From assembly GCA_000004985.1 (NCBI GenBank), contig GG738845.1: DNA of 64,000 bases. The stretch is one strand, 5' to 3'. The translations under genes and the position numbers were made by a program. This document shows positions 4,514 through 62,700 of the stretch, one piece after another. A model generated the notes under the pieces. That model was given only the letters and a program-made list of their open reading frames with translations, searched no databases and was not told where the DNA came from. Each line of letters opens with the position of its first letter. Within the stretch, counting starts at the first letter, position 1. Source of the DNA: Naegleria gruberi (lineage: Eukaryota).

Positions 4514-6220
4514 TTAAAATGATTCCCCTGTTCCCATTTGTTGATTTAGTAATTCTTCATCAAGGTAAGAGGTTTGTCCATTATCAAAATCTGTACTCTC
4601 TATTGTAGTTGCTTGGGTATCGTATTGTGAGTATCTATTATTATTTGTGTGGTCAGTAATTGGTTGAGATGGAAGATATTGATCTGAGAATAGTGATAGC
4701 ACATTTTCTGATTTAAAATTCGCAATAACGTTAGCGATTGGATCTTTCAAACGTATTTCATAATCAATTGTTGCCATTATTGTCTTGTTGGCCTTTCCAA
4801 TTATATTGGCAGTTCCCTTAATAACATTGCTTTTGCCATCCTTTATAAATCCGGCTAAAGGAATCTCAACTTGCCCAACAACTTCGCAATTATCTATTGA
4901 GTGAGCAATTGTTAATTGCACCAATATATAACCATTAGCAATATAGTACATAAATAGTGTGTTGTTTTCAAATTCGAATAACTTTTCAAACGCAAGCTCA
5001 TTAGTTATACCGTATGTCATTCCTGATAATTGTGTTTCATGCTTGAAGAAATCAACTGACAAGAAGAATGGAAGATTGCTCCACTCCTTGGAAAAGTGAG
5101 TCATATTTGGCCTAGTGTTGAATAACTTGAATTGACATTGATTTTCAGAATGGGTTTGAACAAAGTTTACCTTAATTTCTCTAGGTTGAGGTAAATCTTT
5201 GTGTAAAATTGTAACCATTCTATCTCCTTCATCTTCTGGAATATATTTTGGCTCTGGCTTTGTTTGGGGCTTTTCCTTTGGTGGTTCTTGTTTAGGAAGT
5301 ACCAACTCTTCATATATAGGTTTTTCGATAATTGGTGGTTTTCTTAGAGTTGGTTTTTCAATAATGATAACTTCAGGTTTGTAATTACTTTTTACAACAT
5401 CGACAAAAGGTTCAATTTCCTTATAGATTTGAACAGGTGGTTTCCAATCCATAATTGGAGGTGGAGGTTTCACTTCTCGTTTCACTTCTGGTTCAATATT
5501 TACTTGAACAGATTGAGCATAACTAGCAGGTTTCTTTTCTATGAGTGTTTGAACTTCTGCCGATATTGTTAATATGGAGTTAGTTTGGGTTGGAACTGAT
5601 TTCTTTTCCTTTTTCTCCATCATTGTCTCCAGCTGAGTTTCTTGATTTTTATACTTGGCAACAATTTTTGTATACTTTACGTGTTGCTCTGAAAATTTAT
5701 CATTCCATTGTTTGATTTCTTGTTTTAATTGTTCAATCAAAGTTTCATATTTTTTGTTTTGTTTCTTTTCCTTTAACTTTTCTGTATCCAACAATGTATC
5801 TTGAAGGTTTTTGTTGACCTTCCTTAGTGATTCAATTTCTTGTCTTAGTTTCTTATTCTTTTCCTCGCTGTCTGATAATTTTGTAATTTCAATTTGTTGA
5901 AGTTGAATTTTGTTTTGGAGCTCTGATGAGCGTTCTCTTTCGTCCTTTAAATCTCGTTCCAACTCTCCTAAACGATTAATTAATTCCTTATGATTATCCA
6001 AAATAAATTTGAAATTATTTTCCAACTGATCGTATTTAGATTGAAGTTGTTTAATCTTGGTATTTTTACTCCGAATTTCATGTTGAAGAGATAATAATTC
6101 CATCTCATGTTGTTGACGCAATTTAATATCATCAGCTGAGGGCTGAATAGGATTTCCTATTTGTTGTTGTTGTTGTTGCTCCCGACTAACAATCCGTGCC
6201 TGTTGTCGTTGTTGAAGCAT
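4514..6220 (-). CDS. Coiled-coil protein: N-terminal poly-Q, a long heptad-repeat region, Pro/Lys-rich repeats, and a C-terminal about 180-aa predicted beta-sandwich (C2-like) domain
   Basis: 568-aa minus ORF with ATG at 6218-6220 in an A-rich context. The coiled-coil region runs ELLSLQHEIRSKNTKIKQLQSKYDQLENN...LQNKIQLQQIEITKL. The Pro/Lys repeats are KPPIIEKPIYEE / KPEVIIIEKPTLRKPP. The function of the C-terminal domain is not established. Confidence 0.45.
   Translation of the reverse strand: MLQQRQQARIVSREQQQQQQIGNPIQPSADDIKLRQQHEMELLSLQHEIRSKNTKIKQLQSKYDQLENNFKFILDNHKELINRLGELERDLKDERERSSELQNKIQLQQIEITKLSDSEEKNKKLRQEIESLRKVNKNLQDTLLDTEKLKEKKQNKKYETLIEQLKQEIKQWNDKFSEQHVKYTKIVAKYKNQETQLETMMEKKEKKSVPTQTNSILTISAEVQTLIEKKPASYAQSVQVNIEPEVKREVKPPPPIMDWKPPVQIYKEIEPFVDVVKSNYKPEVIIIEKPTLRKPPIIEKPIYEELVLPKQEPPKEKPQTKPEPKYIPEDEGDRMVTILHKDLPQPREIKVNFVQTHSENQCQFKLFNTRPNMTHFSKEWSNLPFFLSVDFFKHETQLSGMTYGITNELAFEKLFEFENNTLFMYYIANGYILVQLTIAHSIDNCEVVGQVEIPLAGFIKDGKSNVIKGTANIIGKANKTIMATIDYEIRLKDPIANVIANFKSENVLSLFSDQYLPSQPITDHTNNNRYSQYDTQATTIESTDFDNGQTSYLDEELLNQQMGTGESF
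6161..6179 (-). repeat. (CAA)6 microsatellite encoding the poly-Q tract of the coiled-coil protein
   Basis: The plus strand reads ttgttgttgttgttgttg. Confidence 0.5.
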
Positions 6221-17242: not shown

Positions 17243-19327
17243 TTATTGTTGAATCTTTTCCTTGACAACCTCAAATATTTCATAAAGAGTGTCCCAATCA
17301 GGATTAATAAAGTAACACCACCTACATGTCCAATCCATTTGAGTAAAATACAACCCTCCAAATATAGCAAAATAGGAGAACAATAAGCCAGCGCTGACAA
17401 TTCTGACCCACAATGTGAATTTTCCCACCCTTCTCGTTTTTTCACTACAACAAAAGAAGCAACAGCAAAAGAATGCAGAGCATGCATATAATAGTTTGAA
17501 AGGTTTTGATTTTGAGAAATTCTTCCACTTGGAGGGTTTTCCATTCTCCAAATCCAAGTTTTCCTCCCCATCTTCATTACTAGAATTTCCAAGAAGTTTT
17601 CTCCTTTGAGGTGTCTTATTGTTCAAATCTTTCTGTTGAGCTGCTTGTTCTTCATATGGATTTGGATGTCTCATTCGTGGAATGAAAATCATTGTGGATA
17701 AGAAACCAACAAGTAATCCTCCAACGTGAGCAAAATTATCAATCCAAGGAATTAATCCAACAATTACCTGAGCGACAACTTGAATGGTAATTAGAATGAA
17801 ATCTCTTTTTGGACTTGGCATGTACCTCCAATTCATCCATAAATCTGCATAAATGCCTCCGAGAATTCCAAATAGAGAACTTGAGGCTCCAACTGTGACA
17901 ATTTCTGGAAGAAAAAGAGCACTCAATAGATTGCCACCAACACCACTAATGAGATAAATGAAGCAAACAAAGATACATCCCCAATGTCGTTCAAGTGGGA
18001 GCATGACTGACATTTGCCACATCATATTGAGGCACAAGTGAACTATTCCACCATGAAGAAATATTGGAGTGAGTAATCTATAGACTTGCCAATTGGGAGA
18101 AATAATCAAAGTACCTTGTTTGGCTCCCAATTGCACAAGAGTTGCTTCTGGTGGGCCAATTAATGGATTGACCAAGATGGACTCAAGTCCACCTAATCCA
18201 ACACTCACTGCAAACATTATTATTTGAACAATGGTCAATCCAATTGTGAGGAATGGTGTCTTTTTGTGTTCCTGATTGACAGTTCTATTGACAAGGAATG
18301 GATTTTTACTGTCTTTCATGAACTTGCTTGAAAAGTAATTGGAAACAAAGTTTTTGGATGGTTTCTGGAGGAGAACGTCATCTTGTAAATCATTTTCATC
18401 CATTACATCACCCAGAGATTGTCCATTTCCTCTTTCAAACATCAATTCTGGTGTTTCACTATTGGAATTCGATTTGCCCTTATCCTGTTTTTGAAATCCA
18501 AAAGAGTTAATTTCCTGTCTCATTCTCTTAATCTTATCATCCCATTTCTGCTTTCTTTTGAGTTGCTTAACTTGTTGTGGACTTTGTCTCTTTGGGTTGC
18601 TTGTTGGAGATGAACTTCCTTGATTCCTAGGAGAATCGTGAAGATTGAGTGGGGATGGCATTGGTGAGGAGGGAATGAGATTCCTCGTTGAGGATGCATT
18701 CGATACAGGTGATGAATAATCCACTGCACTTGGAGATTGTGATAAAATCGAAGAGTTGGAAATATTGAGTGGACCAGCACTTTGTTCCTTTAACAATTTT
18801 CTCCTAAAGAACCCTGAGAGTCCACCACCAGAATGTTTCGATTGTTGTTGTGGAGCGAGTTCTCTGGTTTTCTTTTTGGGAGTGGAATTTGCAGAGTTGG
18901 ATTCAAGATCGTTGTGGAGTGGAATTTCTTCAATTTCATCAGTCATTACCATGTCCATCAGTTCCAACATGATTGAATCGGGTCTTCTCACTCGAGGCAG
19001 GGAAGAGCTACTGCTTCTGTTTGATGACTCATTCACTCTGAGAGCTGAATAGGAGCCAGGTATACCATCAGTGTTGTTATTTACATGGTGTTCATTAGAG
19101 GAAGATTGTGGAATACTTGATGATGAAGAAGATGACGGAGGTTTTGGAACTGGCCTCAGACTAATGACATTCTCTGTAAGCTCCACAGAGATGACATCTT
19201 CAGAGGATGAAACTGATGACGAGTTTGATGTTGTAGTTGGAGGTTTATGAGAACTTAGGGAAGAGAAGGTAACACTATTCGATGGAAATGCAAATGAGTA
19301 GTTGGTACTAGTATTCGTTGAGTGCAT
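17243..19327 (-). CDS. Rhomboid-family intramembrane serine protease with a long Ser-rich N-terminal region
   Basis: Rhomboid motifs are present: LLTPIFLHGGIVHLCLNMMWQ (HxxxN), GASSSLFGILGGIYADL (GxSx active-site region) and FAHVGGLLVGFL (AHxGG). Six to seven predicted TM helices occupy the C-terminal half. The ATG is at 19325-19327. Confidence 0.75.
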   Translation of the reverse strand: MHSTNTSTNYSFAFPSNSVTFSSLSSHKPPTTTSNSSSVSSSEDVISVELTENVISLRPVPKPPSSSSSSSIPQSSSNEHHVNNNTDGIPGSYSALRVNESSNRSSSSSLPRVRRPDSIMLELMDMVMTDEIEEIPLHNDLESNSANSTPKKKTRELAPQQQSKHSGGGLSGFFRRKLLKEQSAGPLNISNSSILSQSPSAVDYSSPVSNASSTRNLIPSSPMPSPLNLHDSPRNQGSSSPTSNPKRQSPQQVKQLKRKQKWDDKIKRMRQEINSFGFQKQDKGKSNSNSETPELMFERGNGQSLGDVMDENDLQDDVLLQKPSKNFVSNYFSSKFMKDSKNPFLVNRTVNQEHKKTPFLTIGLTIVQIIMFAVSVGLGGLESILVNPLIGPPEATLVQLGAKQGTLIISPNWQVYRLLTPIFLHGGIVHLCLNMMWQMSVMLPLERHWGCIFVCFIYLISGVGGNLLSALFLPEIVTVGASSSLFGILGGIYADLWMNWRYMPSPKRDFILITIQVVAQVIVGLIPWIDNFAHVGGLLVGFLSTMIFIPRMRHPNPYEEQAAQQKDLNNKTPQRRKLLGNSSNEDGEENLDLENGKPSKWKNFSKSKPFKLLYACSAFFCCCFFCCSEKTRRVGKFTLWVRIVSAGLLFSYFAIFGGLYFTQMDWTCRWCYFINPDWDTLYEIFEVVKEKIQQ

Positions 19328-26983: not shown

Positions 26984-28192
26984 ATGAGCAACAACCAACA
27001 AGGAAATTACATTAATTTTCGGCCTTCATCATCAAATAATGGTGGCGGAGGTAGTTATGGTGGATCATCATCATCATCCTCCTCTAAGAAACAACACAAA
27101 TATCCAAAACGTCTGAGTCAAAATCAAGAAAAGACTAAATCATCATCAGGAAGTGAAAATATTTATCGACCACAACTTGCTGCACCAAGCAATGCACCAC
27201 TTCCATCAGCAGAAGAAATGTATAATAGTAGAACTAATCAAGATAGAGACACTAGAAACAAATCACCTATTAAACCGTTAAGAAATTTCAACAATTGGGT
27301 TAAAGGAGTATTGATCCATAAATACGTACCAACACAATCAACAGTTTTGGATATTAGTTGCGGAAAGGGAGGTGATTTATTTAAATATCACTTTCGTAAT
27401 ATCAAGAATTATGTTGGTGTAGATATTGCTCTTTCATCTCTTGTAGATTGTATTAACAGATATAATGAAAATTCAACACAATTTAAATTTCCAATGTCTC
27501 TAGTTCATGCTGATGTAGGAAGGGTATGTATTTTGATTTATTTATTATTTTGAACTTTTTAGAGATCAATTGAATCAGCTTTACCTAGAGGACTGCTCTT
27601 CGATGCTGTCAGTTGTCAATTTGCTGTTCACTACATGTTTGATGCTGAAGAGCATGCTAGAACTCTCTTGAGAAACGTTTCTGAGAGATTGAAAATTGGT
27701 GGTAAATTTATTGTCACAACGTCAGATGCCTATGTTCTTGTAAAAATGTTAAGGGCAGCTCAAGGCCTTACTCTTAAGAATGAGGTGTTCGAAGCAACTT
27801 TCCATTGCACTAGTGAAAAATCATTCCCTCAAACATTTGGTAATCGTTATGATTTCCAATTAGTAGATGCTGTTGATAGATGTGCTGAATATCTTGTTCC
27901 TCCAAAACATTTCATTGATTTGGCCAAGGAACATAATTTGTCCCTTGTTGAACATTTGAATTTCCATGATTTTTATCAAAAGTATGGCAGTAATCAAGAA
28001 ACTAAGGTAAATGTTAAACCAGAACTCAAATTGGAAGGTATGACAGAAGATCAATGGACTGCCATCTATTTGTACAGAGCTTTTGTTTTTGAAAAGATTG
28101 GAGATGACACCTCACTAGTTCAAGATTATCAATTTAATCAACCTTCAGGATATAGAAAACTTTCTGAATCTGACATTATCTCACTTAAATAA
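26984..28192 (+). CDS. rnmt: mRNA cap guanine-N7 methyltransferase (RNMT/Abd1). Exon 1 26984..27523, intron 27524..27562 (39 nt, GTATGT...TTTTTTAG), exon 2 27563..28192
   Basis: LRNFNNWVKGVLIHKYVPTQSTVLDISCGKGGDLFKY (the SAM-binding VLDLGCGKGGDL motif), then FDAVSCQFAVHYMFDAEEHARTLLRNVSERLKIGGKFIVTTSDA, FGNRYDFQL and WTAIYLYRAFVFEK. All are collinear with human RNMT. The phase-0 splice joins ORF-track pieces 26984..27553 and 27635..28192. Confidence 0.85.
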
Positions 28193-31263: not shown

Positions 31264-34200
31264 TTAATCACTAATGACATATTCCTCTGGCTCTTCCTCG
31301 TCATAGGATTCTTCACTATCAAACTCTTCATCTTCAGACGATTCAAACACGTCCTTCTTGTTATTATCGAATTCTTGATTTTCTACCTGTTTGAACTTGT
31401 TGTAATCCAATCGATTGACCATGAGGGATTGTTCTTCCTCTTCTTCACTAGGGGAGGCACTCGAAGCATCTTCTTCTGCTGGTCTTGAAACTCTCACAGT
31501 CTTTTGGCCATATTGTGAACGAGGAGGAACGTAATCATTGGTAACTGTTTGTTTCACACCCATTTCACTTTCACTACTGGTTGTGGATTCATCGTCTTCA
31601 TCAACCATCTTTTCAGGTATTTGCATTTTGTTTGGAGGTAAATAGAGTAAATCTTGTTTTTCAACACTTGGTAGCAAGTGTTTTCTGTGTTTACCAATCC
31701 ATTTAGGAGAGGCTGCATCAAACAGAGAAGGAATAGTAAACGTTGAAGCCTTGTCATTTTGATCCAACCACGATTTAAATGATGTCAATTGGTTAATTAC
31801 CTTCAATTGATTTCCATTCTTTGAGAAAATTGGTTGGTTGATACGTCTACCACCCATTTTCAAAAGTGGATTCTTCTTTACATCTGCCGTATTTTGATCT
31901 AATTTAACCTTTTGAATTGGTGGTAAAATATTTCCAATAATTGCCAACAAGTTATTATTGTTGAATTGCAATGACAAATGATAGGCATCAATATAATTAC
32001 TATTCATAATGTAATAGCTTAACAATAATTCATTCTTCTTCTCTTTCTTCAAATATTGTTCAATCCACAAACTTTCCATTTCATCAAATGGGAATATAGA
32101 AAGCAAATCAATGAAACAATTTCCAATCAAGGAGTAGTAAAGCATACAGTAGAATGTTCTTCTCTTCTCACTTTCATCCTCCATACTTCTGCAATAATCA
32201 AAAGCCAAGTGATACATATCATTAGTTAAATATATTAAGACTTGAATATTGGAATCAATTGAATACTTCGATGAAGTGGTTATATCCATGTCGGAAGTGT
32301 TCGAAGTAGTTGAATCAGACAAAATGTTTAACAAACGCTGTGCTGAATTAAATGAGCAAGATTTGATTAAAATACTGAGTATACTTGAAACCCATTCATC
32401 CAATTCACTGAAAGAACTTTCGCTATTGTTAATAAATAAGTTCGAAAGGTAATGAATAGCTTGATTAAGAATTGAGTCTTGGGTACGTTTAGTGTCCAAC
32501 AGCCATAATCCAACAGCAAAGTGTTGATATGGAGCTGGAATGTTGAATTCCTTAGCATACTTATTTAAAATTGAAACGTCATTACCATTTGAATGTGAAT
32601 GGTTATTATCAATAATTAAATAGAATATAATTAAATGTTTGAGTTGGAGTGAAATATTACTATTATAGATTTGTAAAATGAAATTTTTCAAATCTTTTGG
32701 TGGATATTCTACTTGGCATTTCTCTGCCATATGTTCTATTAAAAAGTTTTTAGTGTTAGTAACATTATGAGTAGGTACCATATCGCTGTCAACACTAGTA
32801 AGATTCATAATATTCAAAATAGAATTGAATTCATCTTCACTAACATTGATCTTGTTGATAGGGAATGGTTGTTCTTTTCTTTGATCCCACTCGGTTTGTA
32901 ATTGGGTATAATTGTAAATATTAGATGTCATTGGTAATAAACCATTTTGAATTAACCATATCATGGTTTTAGCATATTCCACCTTGAAGGTGATAGTCTC
33001 CTTATATTTTACTAGGCTAGGAGTATAGTCATCACCAACATTTTCAATTAACTTAGCTCTATGAATTATTGATTGAATAAGCAAACATAAGGTTTCAAGT
33101 TTGCGAATTGATTTTTGTAACACCTTTTTGCATTCCTGTAACACAAGTGGAGGAGTTGTACGATTTGTATTTTCAAGTAATTGTTGTAAATTTTTTTCCA
33201 ATTCAGAAAATTCGTATTCTTGTGTATTCTTGATCCAAATAGTAATATCCTTAATATCGTGGACGATAAATCTTTGTTTAATACTTTGACTTGTACTCAT
33301 TGGAGCATCGTTATTGAATGGTAATATCAAATCCTCTTGATTTAATACAGTTCCTTCGATATATTCTACCAATGTTGATATTAAATTATTATTGTACAAA
33401 TCTTCGAACAAGTTGTTCATGTTAGATCTGTATTGATGTAATAATTTTTGTAAGGAAGGATTGGCTATCAAGGTATTGTCATTTTTCATTGTGATAGTAT
33501 GAATAGATTGATTTGTCAATACACTAATCTCCAGTCTTGTCAAGTTATTTGACTTATATTGAACGTAATCATGAACATGAACATCCAAGATATTACAATA
33601 CAAATTTTCAATGTCTATACATGCTAAACTAGACTCTAGTTGATCAGTTAAAATCCAAATATTCAAATTGAATATGAGTAATTTGACACTACCTCCATCT
33701 TGTAGTAAAATCAGAGAAGAATACTTGTCAATATTAACTAATTTAACTTGAACCAATTGTTCAGCATAATCTCTCAAGTCAATATATTGCTTAGATTGAT
33801 ATGATTTAAAGTAATCAACAAAATAAAACATTACAAGTTCGTTTGCCTCTGTTCCAACAAGAAGAGTAAAATCATGTTGTTTGCCAATATTATTAATTGA
33901 AATACTTGTAATACTATCATTGCACAATTGTTGAGTAAATACTTTCTCTAATAAATTATTCAATATCTTGTAAAATATAATCTTTCCACTTTCAAATCCT
34001 ACAATGATTAAATCCTTTTCTTTGCTATAATAAATACTAGTTGGATTATCAAGAGGTAAATATTTAAAATTAAAATCATGATCCATAAGACCTATACCAT
34101 TATTTGTTAATACTACAAGGTGATTTTCAACAGCCAAACAATTATTAATTTCATAATCAAGATTAAAATGTCTTAATTTTCTACCACTAGATAAATCAAT

Positions 34201-34497
34201 AGTAAATAATTCCTTTTCCTTTGTAAAACAACAAAGAATCTCTCCAGCACTATCACTAGGTGAATAATAACAACAAGTATTAATATCGGATGGTGAATAA
34301 AATGTTGCAACAACCAATTTGGTCTCGTTATCAACAATCTTTACTTGTCTCCCTTCAGTGATCACAAAGGAAACAAAACCATCTGATGTTATTCTTCCTT
34401 GTTGAGCATTCTTCACTCCCGGAATTTCCCTTCCCAAACACAATTCATAGGGAAGCCTCATAGATAATTGATGAGTAGCCAATGAAGGAGTGGTCAT
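31264..34497 (-). CDS. Large (1077 aa) beta-propeller plus alpha-solenoid protein with an acidic tail, possibly a Nup120/Nup160-family nucleoporin or another vesicle-coat-like scaffold
   Basis: Intron-free minus ORF with ATG at 34495-34497. The N-terminal 400 aa show WD-like strand patterns (VVATFYS, LVVLTNNG, LIIVGFESGKIIFYK, TLLVGTEANELVMFYF). The C-terminal part is alpha-helical. The protein ends EEDASSASPSEEEEEQ...ESSEDEEFDSEESYDEEEPEEYVISD. The functional assignment is a guess. Confidence 0.35.
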   Translation of the reverse strand: MTTPSLATHQLSMRLPYELCLGREIPGVKNAQQGRITSDGFVSFVITEGRQVKIVDNETKLVVATFYSPSDINTCCYYSPSDSAGEILCCFTKEKELFTIDLSSGRKLRHFNLDYEINNCLAVENHLVVLTNNGIGLMDHDFNFKYLPLDNPTSIYYSKEKDLIIVGFESGKIIFYKILNNLLEKVFTQQLCNDSITSISINNIGKQHDFTLLVGTEANELVMFYFVDYFKSYQSKQYIDLRDYAEQLVQVKLVNIDKYSSLILLQDGGSVKLLIFNLNIWILTDQLESSLACIDIENLYCNILDVHVHDYVQYKSNNLTRLEISVLTNQSIHTITMKNDNTLIANPSLQKLLHQYRSNMNNLFEDLYNNNLISTLVEYIEGTVLNQEDLILPFNNDAPMSTSQSIKQRFIVHDIKDITIWIKNTQEYEFSELEKNLQQLLENTNRTTPPLVLQECKKVLQKSIRKLETLCLLIQSIIHRAKLIENVGDDYTPSLVKYKETITFKVEYAKTMIWLIQNGLLPMTSNIYNYTQLQTEWDQRKEQPFPINKINVSEDEFNSILNIMNLTSVDSDMVPTHNVTNTKNFLIEHMAEKCQVEYPPKDLKNFILQIYNSNISLQLKHLIIFYLIIDNNHSHSNGNDVSILNKYAKEFNIPAPYQHFAVGLWLLDTKRTQDSILNQAIHYLSNLFINNSESSFSELDEWVSSILSILIKSCSFNSAQRLLNILSDSTTSNTSDMDITTSSKYSIDSNIQVLIYLTNDMYHLAFDYCRSMEDESEKRRTFYCMLYYSLIGNCFIDLLSIFPFDEMESLWIEQYLKKEKKNELLLSYYIMNSNYIDAYHLSLQFNNNNLLAIIGNILPPIQKVKLDQNTADVKKNPLLKMGGRRINQPIFSKNGNQLKVINQLTSFKSWLDQNDKASTFTIPSLFDAASPKWIGKHRKHLLPSVEKQDLLYLPPNKMQIPEKMVDEDDESTTSSESEMGVKQTVTNDYVPPRSQYGQKTVRVSRPAEEDASSASPSEEEEEQSLMVNRLDYNKFKQVENQEFDNNKKDVFESSEDEEFDSEESYDEEEPEEYVISD

Positions 34498-34695: not shown

Positions 34696-36679
34696 ATGAG
34701 AGAAGTTGTAACGCTGCAATTTGGTCATTATTCAAACTTTATTGGCTCACACTATTGGAACACACAAAAGAATGTATTGGAAGGATACAAGCCATTGATG
34801 AATAATTATCACATTCCAAATTTTCGTCCTGAAGTGGAAACAAGTGTCTTATTCCGAGAGACTAGAGGTGGTTATTCGATTCATTCAGAAGATGAAGCAC
34901 TAGAATATTTTCCTAGATTGTTAGTTTTTGATTTGAAGGGATCAAGAGGATCTTTGAGAAAGAATAATGCTGATCCTTATCAATCAGTTGATCAAGAATT
35001 TATCAATCAACATAAGAATATTACTCGTTGGGATAAATTGGAAGTGATGAAGACTTTTGAAAATACTAAACAAACTAAATTTACAAAACAACAATTAAGC
35101 AAGAATGAAAATACACGTGAATTGGTATTGAGTGACGATGAAAGTGAAGTCAGTCAATCACAAGAACCACAACAAAAGAAACAAAAGAAGGAATATAGTA
35201 GAATAGATATTGAACAGGATTTGGAGGAAAATGTCTCGTTATGGAGTGATTATCTTCAAGTGGATTTTCATGACAAGACTATTTGTGAACCTCTCCAGTT
35301 CCAATTTGAAGCAGAAAGTTTCAACGCTCTTAATTATGAATCCTCTGAAGGATTTTCCATGAATAGTGCCTTTGATGTTTATTCTACAGGAAGAGAAGTT
35401 TTACATGGTAATTTTAGTTTGGATCAATACGATGATTTTTCTTCTCAATTAATGTACTTTGTTGAGGAATGTGATAGCTTGGATGGTTTCCAAATTTTCA
35501 CAGATTCTTTCAATGCTTGGGGATTGACCTGTACTGAATTTATTGAAATGATCAAAGATGAAGTTGGAACCAAAGTGCCAATTATTGCCTATGCATCATC
35601 TCCATATATTCCATCTTTTGCTAGTGACACTGATAGATCCAAGTTTATTTTGAATACTTGTCTCACTTATTGTGACCTCTATGAAAATGCAAGCTTGTTT
35701 ATTCCAAACAATGCTCAACAATTAGAATCTATGGCTTCTAGTCCATTCTTCTCTGGATTTGATGTAAGTATAAGTTTTAATACTTTTAGATTCACAATAA
35801 TTCCATCAATTTAATTTGAAATATTCGAAATGTTAATAGCCAAGAAAAATGTATCACTCTGCTTCAGTTATGGCTGCTGCTTTTGATTCCGTCTCTCTTT
35901 CCTATCGTCTCAATGGCCAAGGTAATAAGCAAATTGGCATGCACACATTCGCACAAGAAATGACTCCTCTTTCCTCACTTAAAATTGCCAATATTAATTT
36001 GGCATTCCCATATGCTTACACAATGGGATCATCTCTATATCAAAATTTGAGAGGTCTCAATCCAATTCATCAAAATAATCTCTTCACACCACTCCTCTCT
36101 AATATTGCCTCTGGATATGACAGTGAATCTCCATTTGCTCACTCTCTCATTCTCAGAGGTTTGAATCCAGTTAGTGTTCCACTCTATCACGATTCCGATC
36201 TCAAGGAATTGGATCAATTACGTATGAAGAAATACGGAGGTGAAGAATTGGAAAAGTACAGACACCTCATTGGATGCAATTCTCATAGTGAAATGATTGA
36301 AAATTATATGGGACAAACAAGAAGTTACTCCAAACATGCCTTCCATGTAAATCAAGCATTCCAAACACCATATACCTTCCCAAGAATCCTCAATAATGAA
36401 ACACTTTCAGATAAGGGCTTTTTGAGAGAGGCAGGCGCAAATGCAGCAGAACGTGTTGAAAGTTGTCCACTTGGAGCTTACTTGTCGAATAGTAGAAACT
36501 TTGTCCAACACATCAAGGAACTCAATGAATACTTTGACATGCTCAACGGAGGTACTTCTGCTCTATTTTCTGGTGGATTGACTGGTGCCACAACTTTCAG
36601 ATACAAAATTTCCAAAGATGAAATGAAAGAATACAAGGAAGTCATGGGCAGAATGTTTGATAATTATGAAGAATCATAA
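34696..36679 (+). CDS. mstA: Misato / DML1 (tubulin/FtsZ-related mitochondrial-distribution protein). Exon 1 34696..35763, intron 35764..35839 (76 nt, GTAAGT...TTAATAG), exon 2 35840..36679
   Basis: The N-terminus MREVVTLQFGHYSNFIGSHYWNTQ is the Misato/tubulin GTPase signature (compare MREIITLQLGQCGNQIG). The phase-0 splice joins ORF-track pieces 34696..35814 and 35849..36679. Confidence 0.75.
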
Positions 36680-36804: not shown

Positions 36805-37344
36805 TTATTTAGCCAACTTCTTTCGAATTTCCTCACTCAACCATTTCACACCATCTCCAATACCTTCCCCACTCAAAGCATTTGAGGAAACTATGGTCCA
36901 GCTCTTATTTGAAATGTTGTGTAATTTCAAAGATTCAGACACTTCGGAGGAACTAAGGGAATTTGCCAAGTCTTGTTTGTTGGCAAAGAACAGTATTGGT
37001 ATTGGTCTTTCTTTAATTTCTTTCAACAGAATTGTCAGCTCATCTTCTGCGACTGCAACTCTTACACGATCAGCACTATCAACAACAAAGATAACTCCAT
37101 CCACTTCCCCGTAAAAACTCTCCCACAAATTTCTATACTTTCCCTGTCCAGACATATCAAACACTGTAAAATTAAGTTTCTCATAATCAAAATTCTCTTG
37201 ACTGTAACCAACAGTTGGAACAACATTTGTTTCACGTTCCTTCTTTGGCTTTAAATGATTAATAATTGTTGATTTTCCGCTGTTATCCAATCCGCAACAA
37301 ACAATCTTTACACTTTCCTTCTTTTTAGAATTAAAAGCTCCCAT
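36805..37344 (-). CDS. arl6: ARL6 / BBS3 (ARF-like GTPase of the BBSome pathway)
   Basis: [33 protein letters not shown]...[21 protein letters not shown]...[24 protein letters not shown]...[14 protein letters not shown]...[27 protein letters not shown] is collinear with human ARL6 at roughly 55% identity ([71 protein letters not shown]). The ATG at 37342-37344 is chosen over the ORF-track start at 37392. Confidence 0.8.
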   Translation of the reverse strand: [179 protein letters not shown]

Positions 37345-37714
37345 TTTCTTTTTAATAATATAGGTTGTATTAATTATAATAGCAAAATACAAGGTGCCCG
37401 AGCAACACAGTCGACTGAGTTTTTTTGATGAGGTTTTTTGATGGTCAAGTTCTCTACAGCTTTAAATGCGTACAAAAATGGCGCCACAATTTTCATTAGC
37501 CTTATTGATAATAAGAGATGATGGAAATACAAGTTATGATAAAGATATTATCTTTATAATAAAAATCCATACATTTAATACAATCCTAAGTAATTACATG
37601 TAAAATAGTGCATTTTTGATTCATGAGTTTCTGAATTCTACCACTACATTACTTTGTGAATCTAACTAACTTATTCCATAAAATTTACAAAAATTTATTA
37701 CAAAATTCCATGAT

Positions 37715-38755
37715 TTAAATTTCCTCAGATTTATACTTGATAGGTGGATCAAGAATAACAAATCTTGAAGCTATCAATGCCAATTCTTCACTTGGTTTAG
37801 TTCTTTCAATAATTGCTTGAATTCCACCCAAAGTTCTCTCAAGTGCCAAACCAAAATCATTATCTCCATGAATTGTATAAAAAGCCAAAAATAAAGCACT
37901 CACAACATCACCAGTTCCAGTAAAAGAACCTGGTAAACGTTTAAACTTGATTCTATACTTTTTCTGAGAATGTCTATTACTGGCATACAAGACAAGAGTT
38001 TCCTTATCATTATTAAATTCCACACTGGTCAAAACAACGACAGGAATATTATATGGTTCACTGTGGAATAAATTAATGACATCGAGAGCATCTTGTTCAG
38101 TTTCAATTTTCTTTCCACTCAATGTTTCTGCTTCGAATTGATTTGGTGTAATGACAGAGGCACGTTTCAAAACTTGATCTCTATAAATTTGAATCAATGA
38201 TTCTGGCACATATAATTTTCCAGCGTCACCCATAACTGGATCACAAACTAAATTTATACAATATCATCAATTATTGATTGTATAAATATAATTTTTCTAA
38301 TTTCTCAACATACCATAAATTAATTTTGGATTTTTCTCAACTAATGAATCATGGATATGCAAAATATTAGACAAGAATGTTTCACTTCCGATATATCCTG
38401 TAAGTAAATGAGTATAAGATCCTTCCAAATTATTCATTTGTAAACCTTGAAATAATTGTGCAAGTTCATCTCCACTAAGTGTTTGTCCCTTCCATCCTTT
38501 CGAGTAGCCAGTATGATTAGAAAATTGTACCGAATTAATAAAATCAACTTCAAAGCCTAATAATTGAAGAGGAAAAACAGCAGCTCTATTTCCAACATAT
38601 CCATGAACCACATGACTCTGAACACTCAAAACCTTTCCGTTCAAACATGATGGTATGCTAGAATAATCAATGGTTGTTGGTGCAACTGAAGACGATGATG
38701 ATGCAGTTTGTGATGAGGACATTTTTTTATAATGATTCTCTTTGAGCGCATTCAT
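37715..38755 (-). CDS. pdxK: Pyridoxal kinase. 5' exon 38755..38314, intron 38313..38248 (66 nt, GTATGT...AAATTTAG), 3' exon 38247..37715
   Basis: Exon 1 reads [43 protein letters not shown]...[10 protein letters not shown]. Exon 2 opens with (V)[15 protein letters not shown]..., the PdxK VCDPVMGD motif, and carries [12 protein letters not shown]. The phase-1 splice joins the two ORF-track pieces. Confidence 0.85.
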
Positions 38756-41394: not shown

Positions 41395-42525
41395 ATGGCA
41401 TCAGACACTGAAGTTGATTGTGTTGTGATTGATTGTGGATCAGCTTTTTGTAGAGCTGGTTTTGCAAGTGGAGATTCTCCTAGAGCTGTTTTTCCTCCGA
41501 TTGTTGGTCGACCGAAACATCAGTCTCTTATTATTGGAATGAGCCAGAAGGATGCCTACATTGGTGATGAAGCATCAACTAGGAGGAGAGGAATTTTGAT
41601 TTGGAAATGTCCAATCGAGAAGAGGATTGTTACAGGATCATGGGATGATATGGAAAAGATTTTATATCATACATTTTATAATGAGTTGAGGGTAGATCCT
41701 CAGGAACATCCAACTCTAATGTCTGAAAGTCCATTCAATCCAAAATCAAATAAGGAAAAGATGACTCAGATTATGTTTGAAACATTTGAAGTGCCTGCTT
41801 TTTATATGGCAAATCAGGGAGTGTTGGGATTAATTGATTCTGGAAAGAGTAGTGGAATAGTATTGGATTGTGGAGAGGGTGTATGTCAATCAGTTCCAAT
41901 TTATGAAGGAATGGCACTGCCACATGCCACTATGGAATTGGATTTTGCTGGAAGAGATGTGTCTGCATGGTTAATGAGTTTTTTGATGGATAAAGGATAT
42001 TCTTTGTATAATACAACAGCAGAAAAGGAAATAGTAAGGGATATAAAAGAGAAATTGGGAAGAGTTGTTTTAAATTTCTCAGAAGAAGTAAATTCACCAA
42101 CCACGAAAGAGGAAGAATATGAAATGCCTGATGGCAACATTTTCAAAATTGGAAAGGAAAGTTTTAAAATTACAGAACCATTTTTTACTCCAACTTTATT
42201 GAATATGGAATCGTATAGTTTACAAGAAATGATTTTTCAATCCATTTCCAAATGTGATTTGGATCTGAAAAAGGAAATGTACAATAACATTGTTCTTGCA
42301 GGTGGAAGTACATTATTTAAAGGATTTCATGAGAGATTAAGTAAGGAATTGAATGAAATTATTCCAACAATGGTTCATTCGAATATTTCTGCTCCACCTC
42401 ACCGAAAATATTCAACATTTATTGGTGGAACAATTTTGGGAAGGTTGTTATCGTCTCAAATAGTTGGTCCAACCTCTGAAAGAATTGATTCACAAAACAG
42501 TTCTTCTTCTTGGTCTCTCAAGTGA
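41395..42525 (+). CDS. Divergent actin / actin-related protein (roughly 50% identity to conventional actin, altered C-terminus)
   Basis: VVIDCGSAFCRAGFASGDSPRAVFPPIVGRPKHQ, KMTQIMFETFEVPAFYMANQGVLGL, GIVLDCGEGVCQSVPIYEGMALPHA, EKEIVRDIKEKLG, YEMPDGNIFKIG, LAGGSTLFKGFHERLSKEL and ISAPPHRKYSTFIGG are collinear with actin. The last about 20 actin residues are replaced by ...SSQIVGPTSERIDSQNSSSSWSLK. Confidence 0.75.
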   Translation: MASDTEVDCVVIDCGSAFCRAGFASGDSPRAVFPPIVGRPKHQSLIIGMSQKDAYIGDEASTRRRGILIWKCPIEKRIVTGSWDDMEKILYHTFYNELRVDPQEHPTLMSESPFNPKSNKEKMTQIMFETFEVPAFYMANQGVLGLIDSGKSSGIVLDCGEGVCQSVPIYEGMALPHATMELDFAGRDVSAWLMSFLMDKGYSLYNTTAEKEIVRDIKEKLGRVVLNFSEEVNSPTTKEEEYEMPDGNIFKIGKESFKITEPFFTPTLLNMESYSLQEMIFQSISKCDLDLKKEMYNNIVLAGGSTLFKGFHERLSKELNEIIPTMVHSNISAPPHRKYSTFIGGTILGRLLSSQIVGPTSERIDSQNSSSSWSLK

Positions 42526-55553: not shown

Positions 55554-56707
55554 ATCCTTAAATTTCATCAATAGCATAAATAATAGACATTATAATCTCT
55601 TATTACTAGTTAAAATTAGTTATTAGAGTAAAGATGATATTAAACATGTGACGTTATAATTAACATGTTCGATATATAGGTTTGAATTTTAACAACTTCA
55701 ATAACTTCAGATTCCTCAATTTAAGTACCACTTCCAACATGGAAGTGTGCACATGCATGCTAGTTGCACTGATGGTAATTATTGGCGATACATGTTGATA
55801 TGCAATATCAGAAATAATGATGGATGTGTTCACATGCTCGTTACACAACCAAATTTGTTGAAACTTAGTGAGAAGTAAATGCATGCAGTGCTAAAACTAT
55901 ATGGCAATGAATTGTGAATGTAGACATGTGAGACATGTTCCAACTCGTGAGATTAACATGTTGATAAGGCAAATGCTCGGTTGTTGATTAGTTAGATCTG
56001 CCTTAGCAAAGCGCCACAGTCATTACCTTTAGCGTGTGGTAACCACATCCGTATTCATCATTCCTATTACTGTTGATCTTATTAATATTCCTACATTAGT
56101 GTTTGTATCCGAGAGTTCAAAAAGCAACCTCAACTTGTTGTGAGGGAAAATATGGCTGCATGTGGTAGCGAACAGAACCATAATGGATTTGTACGGGGTA
56201 ATCTCTTCACTACAAATTAGTACAAATAATTGAGGAATTGTGTGTGCACAAAGATCAATTTTGCTCCATGCTCCTCCACTAGCTCTTGCTGTATGCTGTT
56301 TGACTTTGTTCAAAACTTGGACACATGATTCTAATAGAAGCTAACCACCAAGTTGATCCTTTTCTTTTTGACATTTTCTCACAACAAAAGCATATCAATC
56401 AAGGGAATGTTCTCACCAATCATACCATTATTTTAAACTTTTATTACTGTAAGTACATGGGAGTGAGAAAAAAACACGTTCTTGTGCTCGGCCAAATTTA
56501 ACCCTTACATTCTATTTAAGGGAGATGAAAAACGTTGTTTCCACCGCGAACTACAAATTTCGTAGGTACAAAATGAACTTTTTACTGAAAAATTTCCAAA
56601 TGAGGAATGATACCACAGTGTTTTTACAATATTCTGTTGTGGTGTGCGCTTTAAGAGGCTGCTATCCATGTGAAAGTTGCAAAGATTCGAAACAAAAAAA
56701 CAACAAC

Positions 56708-59700
56708 ATGAGGATAAGAAATTATTGCTTCATTGTAATTGCCTTACTGCTACTTTGTTCAGGGGTGATTTTGGTGCGAGGTTTGTCATGCTCAAAAGAA
56801 GAAGATTGTGCTGATTCTTCAGGTTCTTGTATCAATGGAAAATGTGAGTGTTGGAATAACCATAAGACAGGTGATTATTGTGATGTATGCATTAGAGGTT
56901 ACGTTGGTGCCAATTGTGAAGATTGTGCCGCTGGTTTTACAAAAGACCCACAAGATGGGTCAACATGCTTGGCCAATTGTAATCCAGCTTGTTATAGAGG
57001 TGATTGTGTTGGCACTAATCTTTGTGAATGCAATACAGGTTGGGATGGAGCCACATGCAATGTTTGTGCTAAAGGATATAGTGGTACAGATGCTTTTGGC
57101 AATCTTTTATGCGACGTAAAAACCTGTGTTCCTGGATGTGGTTATCATGGAAAATGTGATGTTCCTCCAAGTACTTGTAAGTGTGATTATGGTTGGGAAG
57201 GGGCTGTTTGTAATATCCCTCAATGTTATGGAAACTATGCCTGTGGTAATAACTCATATTGTTCATCCGCTTTCGAATGCTCATGTGTTGAAGGTTATAA
57301 CCAAACTGCAGCTGGTTGTGTGCCAAATGTTTATAATTGTCCTGTACCATGTGGAGATCATATGAAATGTAACTCTTCATTACTTTGTGCATGTGAACAA
57401 GGTTATGATAGTATCAATGGTGCTTGTTACAAAACATGTCCTTCTAATAGTGTTAGATCTGGAACTGATTGTGTTTGTGTTGCAGGATATTCCTTAAATA
57501 ATGGTGTATGTGAAAAAGAATGTAAAGACTGTACCAATGGAGTTTGCTCCAATGGAGTTTGTACATGTAATGATGGTTTTGAAAAGAAGGGAGAGTATTG
57601 TTACAAGCCATGTTCAGTATTTACTGGAACAGTTGGTGCTACTTGTGCTATTGGTGGTATTTGTAAAGCTAATGGTCCATTCTTCTCCTGTTCGTGTTCA
57701 GAATCTGGTAAAGAAGAGTTTAATGGAGTTTGCAGAACACCTTGCAATCCTGCTTGTGGTGAAAATACTGAATGTAATGAGAATTCAATTTGTCAATGCA
57801 AATCAACACTCGATCAAGATAAATATTCATTCGATAATGCAACCAGAAAGTGTTATCCAAATTGTACCAAATGCAAATTGGAACATCAAACATGTAACAA
57901 TCCAGATGATGCAAATTGTTTCTGTGACAGAGTGAGAGGTTATTTACCAATTTATGATTCCAATGGAGTTGTCATTTCCTGTGAAAAACCATGCAATCCT
58001 GCTTGTATGGGATATTCACACTGTGTTAATGGTGATCATTGTGAATGTGATACTGGTTATACCAATTATGGAAATGAATATGGTTGTGTGAAAACCTGCA
58101 CATCAGCTTGTATTGGTTTGAGTTGGTGTAGTGACGCTATTTGTTATTGTCCTTCTGGATATCAACAACATAGTAATTCAACAAGTATTTGGTGTGAACC
58201 TGTTTGTTCAACTCCATGTGGTGCTAACATGGAATGTAGTGCTCCAGACAATTGTACTTGTAAAGCTGGATATGAAGTGATTGGAAGTGAATGTATCAAA
58301 TTATGTCCTTCTAATAGTGTTAGATCTGGAACTGATTGTGTTTGTGTTGCAGGATATTCTTTAAATAATGGTGTATGTGAAAAAGAATGTTCTCCAGAAT
58401 GTACCAATGGAGTTTGCTCCAATGGAGTTTGTACATGTAATGATGGTTTTGAAAAGAAGGGAGCTTACTGTTACAAGCCATGTTCAGGATTTACTGGAAC
58501 AGTTGGTGCTCCTTGTGCTGCTGGTGGTATTTGTAAAGCTAATGGTCCATTCTTCTCTTGTTCGTGTTCAGAATCTGGTAAAGAAGAGTTTAATGGAGTT
58601 TGCAGAACACCTTGCAATCCTGCTTGTGGTGAAAATGCTGAATGTAATGAGAATTCAATTTGTCAATGTAAATCAAATCTCGATCAAGCTAAATACTCAT
58701 TCGATAATGCAACCAGAAAGTGTTATCCAAATTGTACTAAATGCAAATTGGAACATCAAACATGTAACAATCCAGATGATGCAAATTGTTTCTGTGACAG
58801 AGTTAGAGGTTATTTACCAATTTATGATTCCAATGGTGTTGTCATTTCCTGTGAAAAACCATGTAATCCTGCTTGTATGGGATATTCACACTGTGTTAAT
58901 GGTGATCATTGTGAATGTGATACTGGTTATACTGATTATGGAAATGAATATGGTTGCGTGAAAACCTGCACATCAGCTTGTATTGGTTTGAGTTGGTGTA
59001 GTGACGCTATTTGTTATTGTCCTTCTGGATATCAACAACATAGTAATTCAACAAGTATTTGGTGTGAACCTGTTTGCTCCACTCCATGTGGTATTAATAA
59101 GCAATGTAGTGCTCCAGAAGAGTGTTCATGCAAGATTGGCTTTGATGACGTGAAAGAGGTGTGTGTTGAATCTTGCCAAGTAGGTTACTCGAGAGCCGAA
59201 GATGATGATAAGTGCTATGCCGATTGTAAAGTCTGTGGAGCTCACTCTTCTTGCTATCACTCTGAATGCGTTTGTGATTTGGGTTATCAAGTAGATGCTA
59301 GAGGTGATTGTTCTTCAGTTGTCCATGACAATAGCACAGGGAATACTACTGCAGGTAATAGTTCTACTTCTGGTGGCTGTGATCCAATATGTAATCCAAC
59401 AACTAGTTCCTGTCTGGATGGAGCTTGTATTTGTAAAGACAATTTGGAAATGATTGGTGGTGAGTGCGTTCATGTTTGTTCTTTAGATTGTGGTATTCAT
59501 GGAATTTGTCAAAATACCACAGGCAGTGCAACTTGTAACTGTACTGATTTCTTTGAAGGAATGGCATGTTCCACCTGCAAGAGTGGTTTTTCATTGATTA
59601 ATGACCGATGTGTATGTGATGATTCTTCAGGTCGTGCTTTGGTGGGTGAGAATTGTATCTGTAACTCTGTAGCCTCGTTTAAACAAGTTGGTACAGAGTG

Positions 59701-62700
59701 CGTTCGTTCTGAACCAAATTGTAGATATGGATGTGGTAATGGATTGTGTAGATTTGTGAATAATGTTACTTCAGACACTGAGTGTGTGTGTTCAGCTGGT
59801 TTCATTTCTACCAATCAATCCAATTGTAATGATTGTGATAGCAATCAAGGCTTGATTCTCTCCAATGGTTTGTGTGTATGCAATGTTAGACTTGGTTTCA
59901 GATTATCAACAATAGATGGGAAATGTAAAATTTCCACACCAATTTGTGCTGACAAATGTGGTAATGGTGAATGTCAATTCGTTGATTCCACAACTGATTT
60001 GGCAGAATGTAAATGTAATGTAGGTTATATGACTGTTCGTGGCTCTGGAAAGATGTGTTCCGAATGTGCAACAGGATACTCACTTTCAAATGGTGTTTGT
60101 AAACTCATTTGTCCTGAAGAATATTCTGGAGATGACTGTTCTACGTATACTCCAACATCTGCTTGTGTGAATCCACCATCAAACTCTCTTTCTTTCTGTA
60201 AATCTGTTGTCTCTTATCAGGTGAAAAATACCTTATATATCCAAGGAGCTCAAAGCCCATCCCAAGCCAAGGAAATGTTCTTTACCAACATGAAATCAGT
60301 AGATGAGGCTGCTAGTAATATCCTCTCTCAAGTATTGAATGAATTTGCAAAACAAAACATGTCTTGTGATTCCAATTGTATTGCTGTATCAACCAAATCC
60401 ATTTGTTACCAATACATTAGTTCATGTTCTGTTGATAATTCCAATGTTGCAGTTGAAAAGAAGCTCTGTAAAAGTGTTTGCAATTACATTTTGAATAATG
60501 AAGTTGTGACTTATCCTGATGTTTATGCTAATAGTTGTAATAGATTACCAGAGACAAATTGTTTTTATGGTACTTATTTGCCTCCAGCCACCAGCTGTTT
60601 TGGAGTTCCTTACTTGAATTCTTCAGTTTGTTCTGGAAAAGGACGTTGTGTCGATACTGACTCTTGTTCATGTAATCAAGGGTTTACAGGTAGAAACTGC
60701 CAACTCCCATTCTGTTTTAACATAGATAGCTCTGACCGTTTGGTTTGCTCATCCAATGGTGAGTGTGTTGGAGTTAACAAGTGTAATTGTAAATCTGGTT
60801 TCACTGGTAAAGACTGTTCTATCATTAATTGTAATGGAAAGAGTGAAGCTGAAGGAGGATGCTCATTCCATGGACAATGTTCTGCTGAGCACAAGTGTGT
60901 TTGTTCTGGTAACTTTGTTGGTGCTTCATGTTCAGAATGTGCAACAGGATTCACTGGAGTAAATTGTGATATTCCAATTTGTAATGGTATCAAAGCTAAT
61001 GATAAGACAGTGTGTAGCTCAAGAGGATCATGTATTGTTGATGGTGGTGAGCCAAAATGTTCTTGCTCCTCAGGATATAGTGGAACCAGTTGCCAAAACT
61101 TTAAATGTAATGATATTGACAGATCTAGTTCAGATGCTTGCTCCAAACATGGTAAATGTATAGCACAAAACACCTGTGTTTGTGCTGGTAATTTCGATCC
61201 GCTGAGATATTGTTCCACTTGTACACCTGCTTTCAATGGAACTGATTGTACAGAGAGAATTTGTTCAGATGAGTTGACTTGTAGTGCCCATGGTAAATGT
61301 AATTCCAATTTCAAGTGTGACTGTCAAGGAAACTGGGTTGGTGATTTCTGTAACCAATGTAAAGATGGATTCGTTGGAACTAATTGTCAATTTGAATGCT
61401 CACCATCAACAAAGTGTAGTGGTAGAGGATCATGCAACATGGATGGAACTTGTCAATGTACTGGAAATAGTATTGGAAAAAATTGTGAACAATGTGCAAC
61501 AGGATGGTTTGGAGCAAAATGTGACTTTTCCATTGATTCCACAAGCTTTGGATTCTCTAGTAAGGGAGATTCTTTATATGGAACTGTTTATTCCAACCTT
61601 AAAAAGAAATTTGCTTGTTCTGACCTTGTAACAACAACTGATATTCTTGGAATTGGTGCTGTATGTGTTTTGAATCCTGAAAAGAGTTCCATGGAAATTA
61701 TTTTAGGTCTCTCTGCATCCGTTAAAATTGGTAGTACTTTACAATTCAAGAAATATTTCGATTCACTTGAAACAACTCAAGTCACAATTTCAACTAAGGA
61801 TTATGTGGCAGTTTCACCACTCGCAAACTTGATTTCAGATAAGCCAAGCGTATCCAAAGCTTGTGGAAAAGTATACTTGGATGCTTCATCATCTGTTTCA
61901 ATAGATCGTAGAACTTTGCTCTTCTCGTGGTCAAATATTTTAGCTCCAACAACACATGATGCAGATACTTTGAATGCATTCCTTTCTTCAGTTACATCTT
62001 CTGGTGTTTATATTGGAGGTGCTGATTTGAGCGTAGGTTCTTACTCAGTCCAAGTAACTGTAACAAGCTCATTCTCTCTTGAAAAATCAACTTCTACCGT
62101 TTCTTTTGATGTATCTGATTTGACATCCCCAACTGTGGCTATTAAGGAAGGTCTTGAGAGTAGTATAATCATTGGTAAAAGTTCCGTCATTACACCAACT
62201 GTAACTTTCCCTTCTTGTTATAAGGGAGAGGGACCAATTAGTTATGTCTATACTTTGGATACCACAAAATCCATAAATGTTGATGTAAAACAAAAGGGTG
62301 AATTATTGATATTTAATGATGATTATACTAAAATAACTGAAGAGGGTGATTATTACTTTATTTTGACCACAACTCAAAAAGGAGCTGCTGATGTTAAGGT
62401 ACCATTCAAAGTTACAGCCAAAGCACTTCCACTTGTTGTTTCTTTCAGTGTTCGTGACATGGTTCAATCTTTTGAAAATGATGTAACTTTCACAATCATC
62501 ACTCGTGACCCAAGCAATCCAAGTAATCCTGGAGGAGATGTTGTCTTGTCATGCACCAATCTTGACACTGCCACAACTTGTGATGGATTTTCAAATTCTG
62601 CAAGTAATATTAATCAAACTACTCGCAGTTTCAAACAAGGAATGCAACCAGGAACTTATATGTTCACAGCAACCTATACTAAGGGATCTAGAAAGTCTCA

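Follow-up and report, generated by a model that had tools for sequence, protein, structure and literature searches.

An ARL6/BBS3 orthologue of Naegleria gruberi with a short N-terminus and a predicted myristoylation motif

Introduction

The locus studied here raises two questions, i.e., which member of the Arf family of small GTPases it encodes and what the presence of such a gene tells about the organism it comes from. It is located at 36805..37344 on the minus strand of a 64,000-nt stretch of DNA, which was analysed as a whole and is referred to as the window in the following. An earlier note on this DNA had read the encoded protein as ARL6/BBS3 and had deduced a source organism with cilia or flagella, in tension with a sequence composition it described as dictyostelid-like.

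The deduction started from the premise that ARL6 is generally restricted to organisms that build cilia. This premise is backed by Dewees et al. 2022 (PMC9250359), who found ARL3, ARL6, ARL13 and ARL16 to be virtually always missing in non-ciliated taxa. The sole exception for ARL6 is the non-ciliated heterolobosean Neovahlkampfia, which has two divergent putative ARL6s, maybe with a cilium-independent function (PMC9250359).

Results

Gene structure and nucleotide-binding motifs

The minus strand of 36805..37344 forms an unbroken open reading frame of 179 codons followed by a TAA stop. Its translation agrees with the coordinates, the length and the N-terminus (MGAFNSKKK) reported earlier, and the C-terminal end of the protein reads EEIRKKLAK. 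The start ATG is found at 37344 within an A-rich context (AAAAAGAAAATG). A TTG-start ORF from the mechanical ORF list (36805..37392) is the same frame extended by only 16 residues upstream. The features of the gene are as follows.

36805..37344, minus strand: complete single-exon CDS of N. gruberi Arl6a/ARL6/BBS3 (from translation; identical to XP_002683577.1 / EFC50833.1)
37318..37344, minus strand: N-terminus MGAFNSKKK with Gly2, Ser6 and Lys7 (N-myristoyltransferase consensus), then polybasic KKK (from a PROSITE-type pattern)
37270..37293, minus strand: P-loop / G1, GLDNSGKS (from alignment)
37144..37158, minus strand: switch II / G3, DMSGQ, with Ser replacing the Gly of other members of the Arf family (from alignment)
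36970..36981, minus strand: G4, NKQD, guanine specificity (from alignment)

The Pfam Arf domain (PF00025) covers residues 7-173 of the protein with 174.6 bits (E = 1.7e-51) compared to a cut-off of 22.3 bits. Together with G1 (GxxxxGK[ST]), G3 (DxxGQ) and G4 (NKxD), this places the protein within the Arf family. The NCBIfam scan matched generic small-GTPase and prokaryotic GTPase models only; it is uninformative for ARL6 since the library is aimed at prokaryotes.

All nucleotide-binding motifs are intact. Ser25 of the P-loop aligns with human Thr31, the site of a BBS3 mutation. The catalytic Gln67 of switch II is retained (human Gln73), and Gly161/Ile162 correspond to human Gly169/Leu170 in the alignment.

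The protein already has public entries. The record XP_002683577.1 / EFC50833.1, to which it is identical, is annotated as 'ARF/SAR family small GTPase' [Naegleria gruberi NEG-M], while its UniRef name (D2UYR4) is ADP-ribosylation factor-like protein 6. In the family-wide survey of Vargová et al. 2021 (PMC8358228, Suppl. Table 1), XP_002683577.1 is listed as NgrArl6a with an IQ-TREE-based, conclusive assignment to the group Arl6, and the NgrArl6a entry of their dataset has exactly the sequence of the window protein. Their table also provides a prediction of 'yes' for myristoylation of the N-terminal Gly as well as predicted S-palmitoylation at C16 and C17. That is, Arl6a, its assignment to ARL6 and its predicted myristoylation are already known from public databases and a published survey. 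We use the name Arl6a throughout.

Orthology to ARL6

Judged by sequence comparison, Arl6a is an ARL6/BBS3 orthologue and not ARL2, ARL3 or ARF. Given that Arf-family proteins are all 30-40% identical to one another, this has to be weighed against the alternative that the protein is another member of the family (ARL3, ARL2, ARF1 or a lineage-specific ARL) that merely resembles ARL6.

Among all PDB chains searched with phmmer, the top matches are all ARL6, namely human 2h57 with 195.5 bits and bovine 6vbv (from a BBSome complex) with 195 bits. These are followed by Chlamydomonas ARL6 (4v0k, with BBS1) with 176 bits and T. brucei ARL6 (4bas) with 145 bits. Among the chains other than ARL6, ARF1 scores best with ~141 bits, and ARL3 reaches ~131 bits. 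Thus, the animal ARL6 is 55 bits above the best non-ARL6 structure, while the T. brucei ARL6 structure is barely above ARF1 (145 vs. 141 bits), which is what a mere resemblance could look like.

For primate ARL6, we observe an identity of 55% over 92% of the query using local BLASTP, 54.7% within the multiple alignment and 51.7% in a global pairwise alignment. The primate reference (P0108) carries the human ARL6 sequence of PDB 2h57 in its N-terminal 180 aa. With 51.7-55% from three alignments, the earlier estimate of about 55% identity to human ARL6 over the whole length was accurate.

The closest matches from a search of 5.8 billion proteins are heterolobosean, i.e., an ENA sequence (94%), Naegleria fowleri (88%), Willaertia magna (81%) and Acrasis kona (60%). 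Among the matches listed after these, the named ones are ARL6s of animals, oomycetes, haptophytes and jakobids (50-58% identity), except for a few with uninformative source names.

We also compared Arl6a with its paralogues based on 40 Arf-family sequences, i.e., search matches plus 14 N. gruberi and 12 Euglena paralogues (PMC8358228 Supplementary dataset 1). In this alignment, Arl6a reaches identities of 48-55% with the ARL6s of animals, algae and oomycetes, while no paralogue of N. gruberi or Euglena exceeds 41%. That is, distant ARL6s are closer to it than any Arf-family paralogue. The respective neighbor-joining (NJ) tree (179 columns, 200 bootstraps) places the protein inside the ARL6 clade with a moderate bootstrap of 75% and apart from Arl2/Arl3, Arl1/Arl5/Arf1, Arl8/Arl18, Arl13, Arl16, Arfrp1 and Sar1. 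The grouping with ARL3, ARL2 or other non-ciliary ARLs, which the earlier note had named as the outcome that would speak against ARL6, did not occur.

Finally, the switch II region follows the ARL6-type pattern F-D-M-S-G-x-G-[KR]-[YF]-R-x-L-W-E. Within the 40-sequence sample, FDMSGQG[KR][YF]RNLWE (minor variants allowed) was found in ARL6 orthologues only. From our own reading of this sample, this form of switch II may be diagnostic of ARL6.

Given the bit score difference, the named database matches listed (all ARL6), the NJ placement, the switch II motif and the identities to ARL6s versus paralogues, and with the ARL6 assignment made independently in a published phylogeny (PMC8358228), we consider a mere resemblance to ARL6 highly improbable.

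ARL2, ARL3 and ARF were considered as the identity of the protein and are rejected in view of the PDB scores, the tree, the switch II region and the identities.

Source organism

The window has a G+C content of 33.6% overall and of 29-38% when computed per 2-kb window. Such a value is AT-rich, but it is usual for N. gruberi and clearly higher than in D. discoideum.

The AT-rich composition, along with low-complexity tracts, would also be seen if a dictyostelid or some other amoeba without flagella were the source of the window, with ARL6 as a contaminant or a horizontally acquired relic. We regard this reading as next to impossible. Seven window proteins (ARL6 and six others, distributed over 4.5-52 kb) are exact N. 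gruberi NEG-M proteins on one contig of 1,555,553 bp, the nearest relatives of the ARL6 are those of N. fowleri (88%) and Willaertia (81%), and the G+C content of 33.6% points away from a dictyostelid, too. The tension with a dictyostelid-like composition, as raised in the earlier note, stems only from an organism guess made by eye and is gone once N. gruberi is known to be the source.

The exact matches to NEG-M proteins already refute a dictyostelid origin as such.

Being a classic amoeboflagellate, N. gruberi forms basal bodies and flagella de novo, which takes no more than about 1 h after a stimulus (PMC3144413; PMC10802493). The inference of a source with cilia or flagella, and not D. discoideum, was thus correct, and the host of Arl6a is a flagellum builder, as expected for a member of the ARL6 group. 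The genome of N. gruberi also encodes the other cilium-correlated ARLs, namely Arl3, Arl13 and Arl16 (PMC8358228).

Within the 64-kb window, there are no genes of the BBSome subunits BBS1, 2, 4, 5, 7, 8 and 9. BBSome genes are reportedly present in N. gruberi according to the genome paper that appeared in Cell in 2010 and to later phylogenetic profiles. The literature retrieved on BBSome and IFT gene content of N. gruberi held indirect mentions only and no explicit statement.

Other genes in the window

The other genes identified within the window are listed below, where the direct surroundings of ARL6 are marked as neighbours.

4514..6220, minus strand: 568-aa 'predicted protein' XP_002683571.1 with Pfam C2-C2_1 (first C2 of RPGRIP1, E = 4e-16), C2 at ~4739..5077
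17243..19327, minus strand: rhomboid-domain protein, 694 aa
23627..26443, plus strand: 938-aa protein XP_002683265.1 with two PAS domains, then an adenylate/guanylate cyclase catalytic domain (E = 9e-50)
26984..27553 and 27635..28192, plus strand: mRNA cap guanine-N7 methyltransferase, two ORFs
31264..34497, minus strand: ELYS-domain protein (ARL6 neighbour, housekeeping)
34696..35814 and 35849..36679, plus strand: Misato/DML1 tubulin-like protein, two ORFs (ARL6 neighbour, housekeeping)
37715..38233 and 38297..38755, minus strand: pyridoxal-kinase-like gene, two ORFs (ARL6 neighbour, housekeeping)
TPT-family transporter (ARL6 neighbour, housekeeping)
41395..42525, plus strand: actin-family protein, 376 aa (ARL6 neighbour, housekeeping)
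56453..64000, plus strand: open frame of at least 2516 codons that runs off the window end, with REJ (E = 4e-35) at ~62594..63328

Among the neighbours of ARL6 in the window, no operon-like cluster of ciliary genes is found. The Misato/DML1, pyridoxal kinase and mRNA cap guanine-N7 methyltransferase genes are each seen as a pair of same-strand ORFs that are 34-81 bp apart, which fits short spliceosomal introns. Unlike these three split-ORF genes, the ARL6 gene has no intron.

Based on its C2 domain, XP_002683571.1 is a candidate RPGRIP1L/NPHP8-like transition-zone protein, in which case the window would hold a second ciliary gene. It is probably the protein that the earlier note had called coiled-coil/C2-like. 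Its N-terminal half is coiled-coil-like, and its PDB match to RPGRIP1L ('fantom') is marginal (E = 0.29).

The REJ module that had been claimed for the giant gene at the window end is real, as can be seen from the Pfam REJ match (E = 4e-35). Within the same frame, it is preceded by Teneurin-type EGF repeats (aa ~1390-1640). No PLAT or channel domain of this frame is found inside the window, past whose end the frame continues; if the protein is polycystin-1-like, as the earlier note had suggested, its channel part would be located beyond that end.

For the actin-family (41395..42525) and rhomboid (17243..19327) genes, the ORF translations lack an exact counterpart in the protein collection, whereas six other window proteins have one. 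For both genes, the public models probably differ from the ORFs, i.e., by introns or other start codons.

N-terminus and membrane anchor

The N-terminus of Arl6a matches the full N-myristoyltransferase consensus (G2, A3, S6, K7) when screened for the pattern M-G-{EDRKHPFYW}-x-x-[STAGCN]-{P}. Gly2 had been reported as being unlike human ARL6. Human/primate ARL6 also has Gly2 (MGLLDRL...), and therefore Gly2 per se is not the difference. Instead, human ARL6, with an Arg at position 6, is scored 'no' for myristoylation, while Arl6a has Ser6 and Lys7, matches the motif and is predicted 'yes' (PMC8358228). In this form, the proposal of a possible myristoylation that differs from human ARL6 holds.

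In the alignment to primate ARL6, the P-loop is 6 residues nearer to Met1 than in human ARL6. Respective P-loop offsets are 17 for Arl6a vs. at least 23 in 97/124 ARL6-type sequences obtained from the protein search. Given that the segment in front of the P-loop is 6 residues shorter, the hydrophobic, amphipathic stretch of animal ARL6 is absent and MGAFNS-KKK is found instead. That is, Arl6a does not show the metazoan-type N-terminus, i.e., a ~15-residue amphipathic helix after Gly2 that is non-myristoylated.

A short, motif-positive N-terminus is observed in 19/124 ARL6-type sequences, including those of N. fowleri, Willaertia, Acrasis, Andalucia and several protist sequences, while 79/124 have a long N-terminus with Gly2 only. 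Among Discoba, the ARL6 N-termini of Euglena, Andalucia and Acrasis read MGLFQSKKR, MGAKFSKKK and MGSVLSSGKKKK, respectively.

Natural variants

An environmental contig (L001; ENA metagenome ERZ929261, contig k127_104680, 1..3916) corresponds to 35.8-38.8 kb of the window and encodes an identical ARL6 protein. Compared to the ARL6 CDS of the window, it shows two synonymous substitutions, and there are several indels of 2-37 bp in intergenic DNA only. The contig stems from an N. gruberi-like strain that is very closely related. Further natural alleles are represented by two other members of the cluster, P0001 (94%) and P0123, with the N-termini MGNFGSKKK and MGNFGSKTK.

Discussion

We consider it very probable that the ARL6 orthology of Arl6a goes together with a BBSome-linked role in the flagellum. 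From orthology and the ARL6 literature, we infer that GTP-bound Arl6a most likely binds BBS1 (via its beta-propeller) of the BBSome. During the change from amoeba to flagellate, it would recruit the coat-like BBSome to the membrane at the flagellar base or to the flagellar membrane, and this recruitment would control the traffic of flagellar membrane proteins. Membrane attachment of Arl6a is probably provided by a co-translational N-terminal myristate in combination with the adjacent Lys-Lys-Lys, where the lipidation is suggested by the motif.

As the main alternative, Arl6a could be a true ARL6 that acts mainly outside of the flagellum in Naegleria, e.g., on cytoplasmic vesicles or microtubules, such that BBSome recruitment would be minor or the task of Arl6b, the second Arl6 paralogue of N. 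gruberi. The existence of two paralogues fits this reading. So does the T. brucei ARL6, which binds tubulin and is distributed over vesicles in the whole cell body (PMC3793860); however, even this protein is tied functionally to BBS1 and flagellum length (PMC3793860). The two divergent putative ARL6s kept by the non-ciliated Neovahlkampfia (PMC9250359) are a further point in favor of a function beyond the flagellum. Within N. gruberi, in contrast, Arl6a is the conserved copy, with 52-55% identity to animal ARL6 and a canonical switch II that keeps the catalytic Gln, while Arl6b is the divergent one (37.6% identity to Arl6a, FDLSGAG). We thus consider a mainly non-flagellar Arl6a rather unlikely and favor the BBSome-linked flagellar role. 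Still, Arl6a may act at another site than its animal counterpart, since TbARL6, the nearest relative studied by experiment that has a short myristoylated N-terminus, is located on cytoplasmic vesicles and binds tubulin and is not flagellum-resident. Furthermore, the ancestral ARL6 role could be divided, given the second, divergent paralogue in N. gruberi.

The heterogeneity of ARL6 N-termini, including the short form, is already described at family level in the literature, so that only a mechanistic consequence of the short anchor would be new. A possible one, which we put forward as speculation that has the odds against it, is that the Arl6a of Naegleria and Willaertia, like the ARL6s of other Discoba (Euglena, Andalucia, Acrasis, T. 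brucei), uses a very short myristoyl plus polybasic anchor in place of a GTP-regulated amphipathic helix. Membrane binding could then be largely constitutive or electrostatic, not nucleotide-switched. As part of the same proposal, Arl6a (with Gln) and Arl6b (without Gln) would split the ancestral role between the flagellate and amoeba stages.

The gene itself adds little beyond correct bookkeeping and marks a source with a flagellate stage. With this, the phylogenetic-profile reasoning that ARL6 implies cilia is shown to work. The short myristoylation-type N-terminus that Arl6a shares with other Discoba is the only mildly interesting point. Naegleria may be a convenient system to study ARL6 anchoring and switching during de novo flagellum assembly.

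Comparison with known ARL6 proteins

Human and bovine ARL6 (2h57, 6vbv) are 52-55% identical to Arl6a over the whole GTPase domain and share with it GLDNSGK[ST], FDMSGQG[KR]YRNLWE, NKxD and the catalytic Gln. With respect to human ARL6, the differences are found at the N-terminus of Arl6a, which is 6 residues shorter, is without the amphipathic segment and has the predicted myristoylation consensus plus KKK, as well as in a two-residue deletion before the IKER/IKHRR segment (pairwise alignment).

Like Arl6a, the ARL6 of T. brucei belongs to Discoba and combines a short N-terminus with a myristoylation consensus. This consensus is well conserved, and the protein has been found to be N-myristoylated by experiment, with genetic and functional links to BBS1 as well as to flagellum length (PMC3793860). 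In sequence, it is far more divergent from Arl6a than human ARL6 (145 vs. 195 bits). A further difference lies in its vesicle localization and tubulin binding (PMC3793860).

The second N. gruberi protein, Arl6b (XP_002681589.1), is listed as Arl6 in PMC8358228 and is sister to the ARL6 clade in our NJ tree (bootstrap 64.5%). It shares 37.6% identity with Arl6a, from which it differs by the P-loop GLEGSGKS, a switch II without Gln (FDLSGAG), the lack of Gly2 (MVGFF...) and a C-terminal extension. Its locus is found elsewhere in the N. gruberi genome, i.e., outside of the window.

Chlamydomonas reinhardtii ARL6 (4v0k-4v0o), which is 48% identical to Arl6a, provides a structural model of GTP-dependent BBS1 binding. 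At the position of the switch II Gln, which Arl6a keeps, it has Ala (FDMSGAG). The switch II Gln is absent in Arl6b (Ala instead, FDLSGAG), in Chlamydomonas ARL6 (FDMSGAG) and in Euglena Arl6 (FDMGGAK), i.e., its loss recurs within ARL6.
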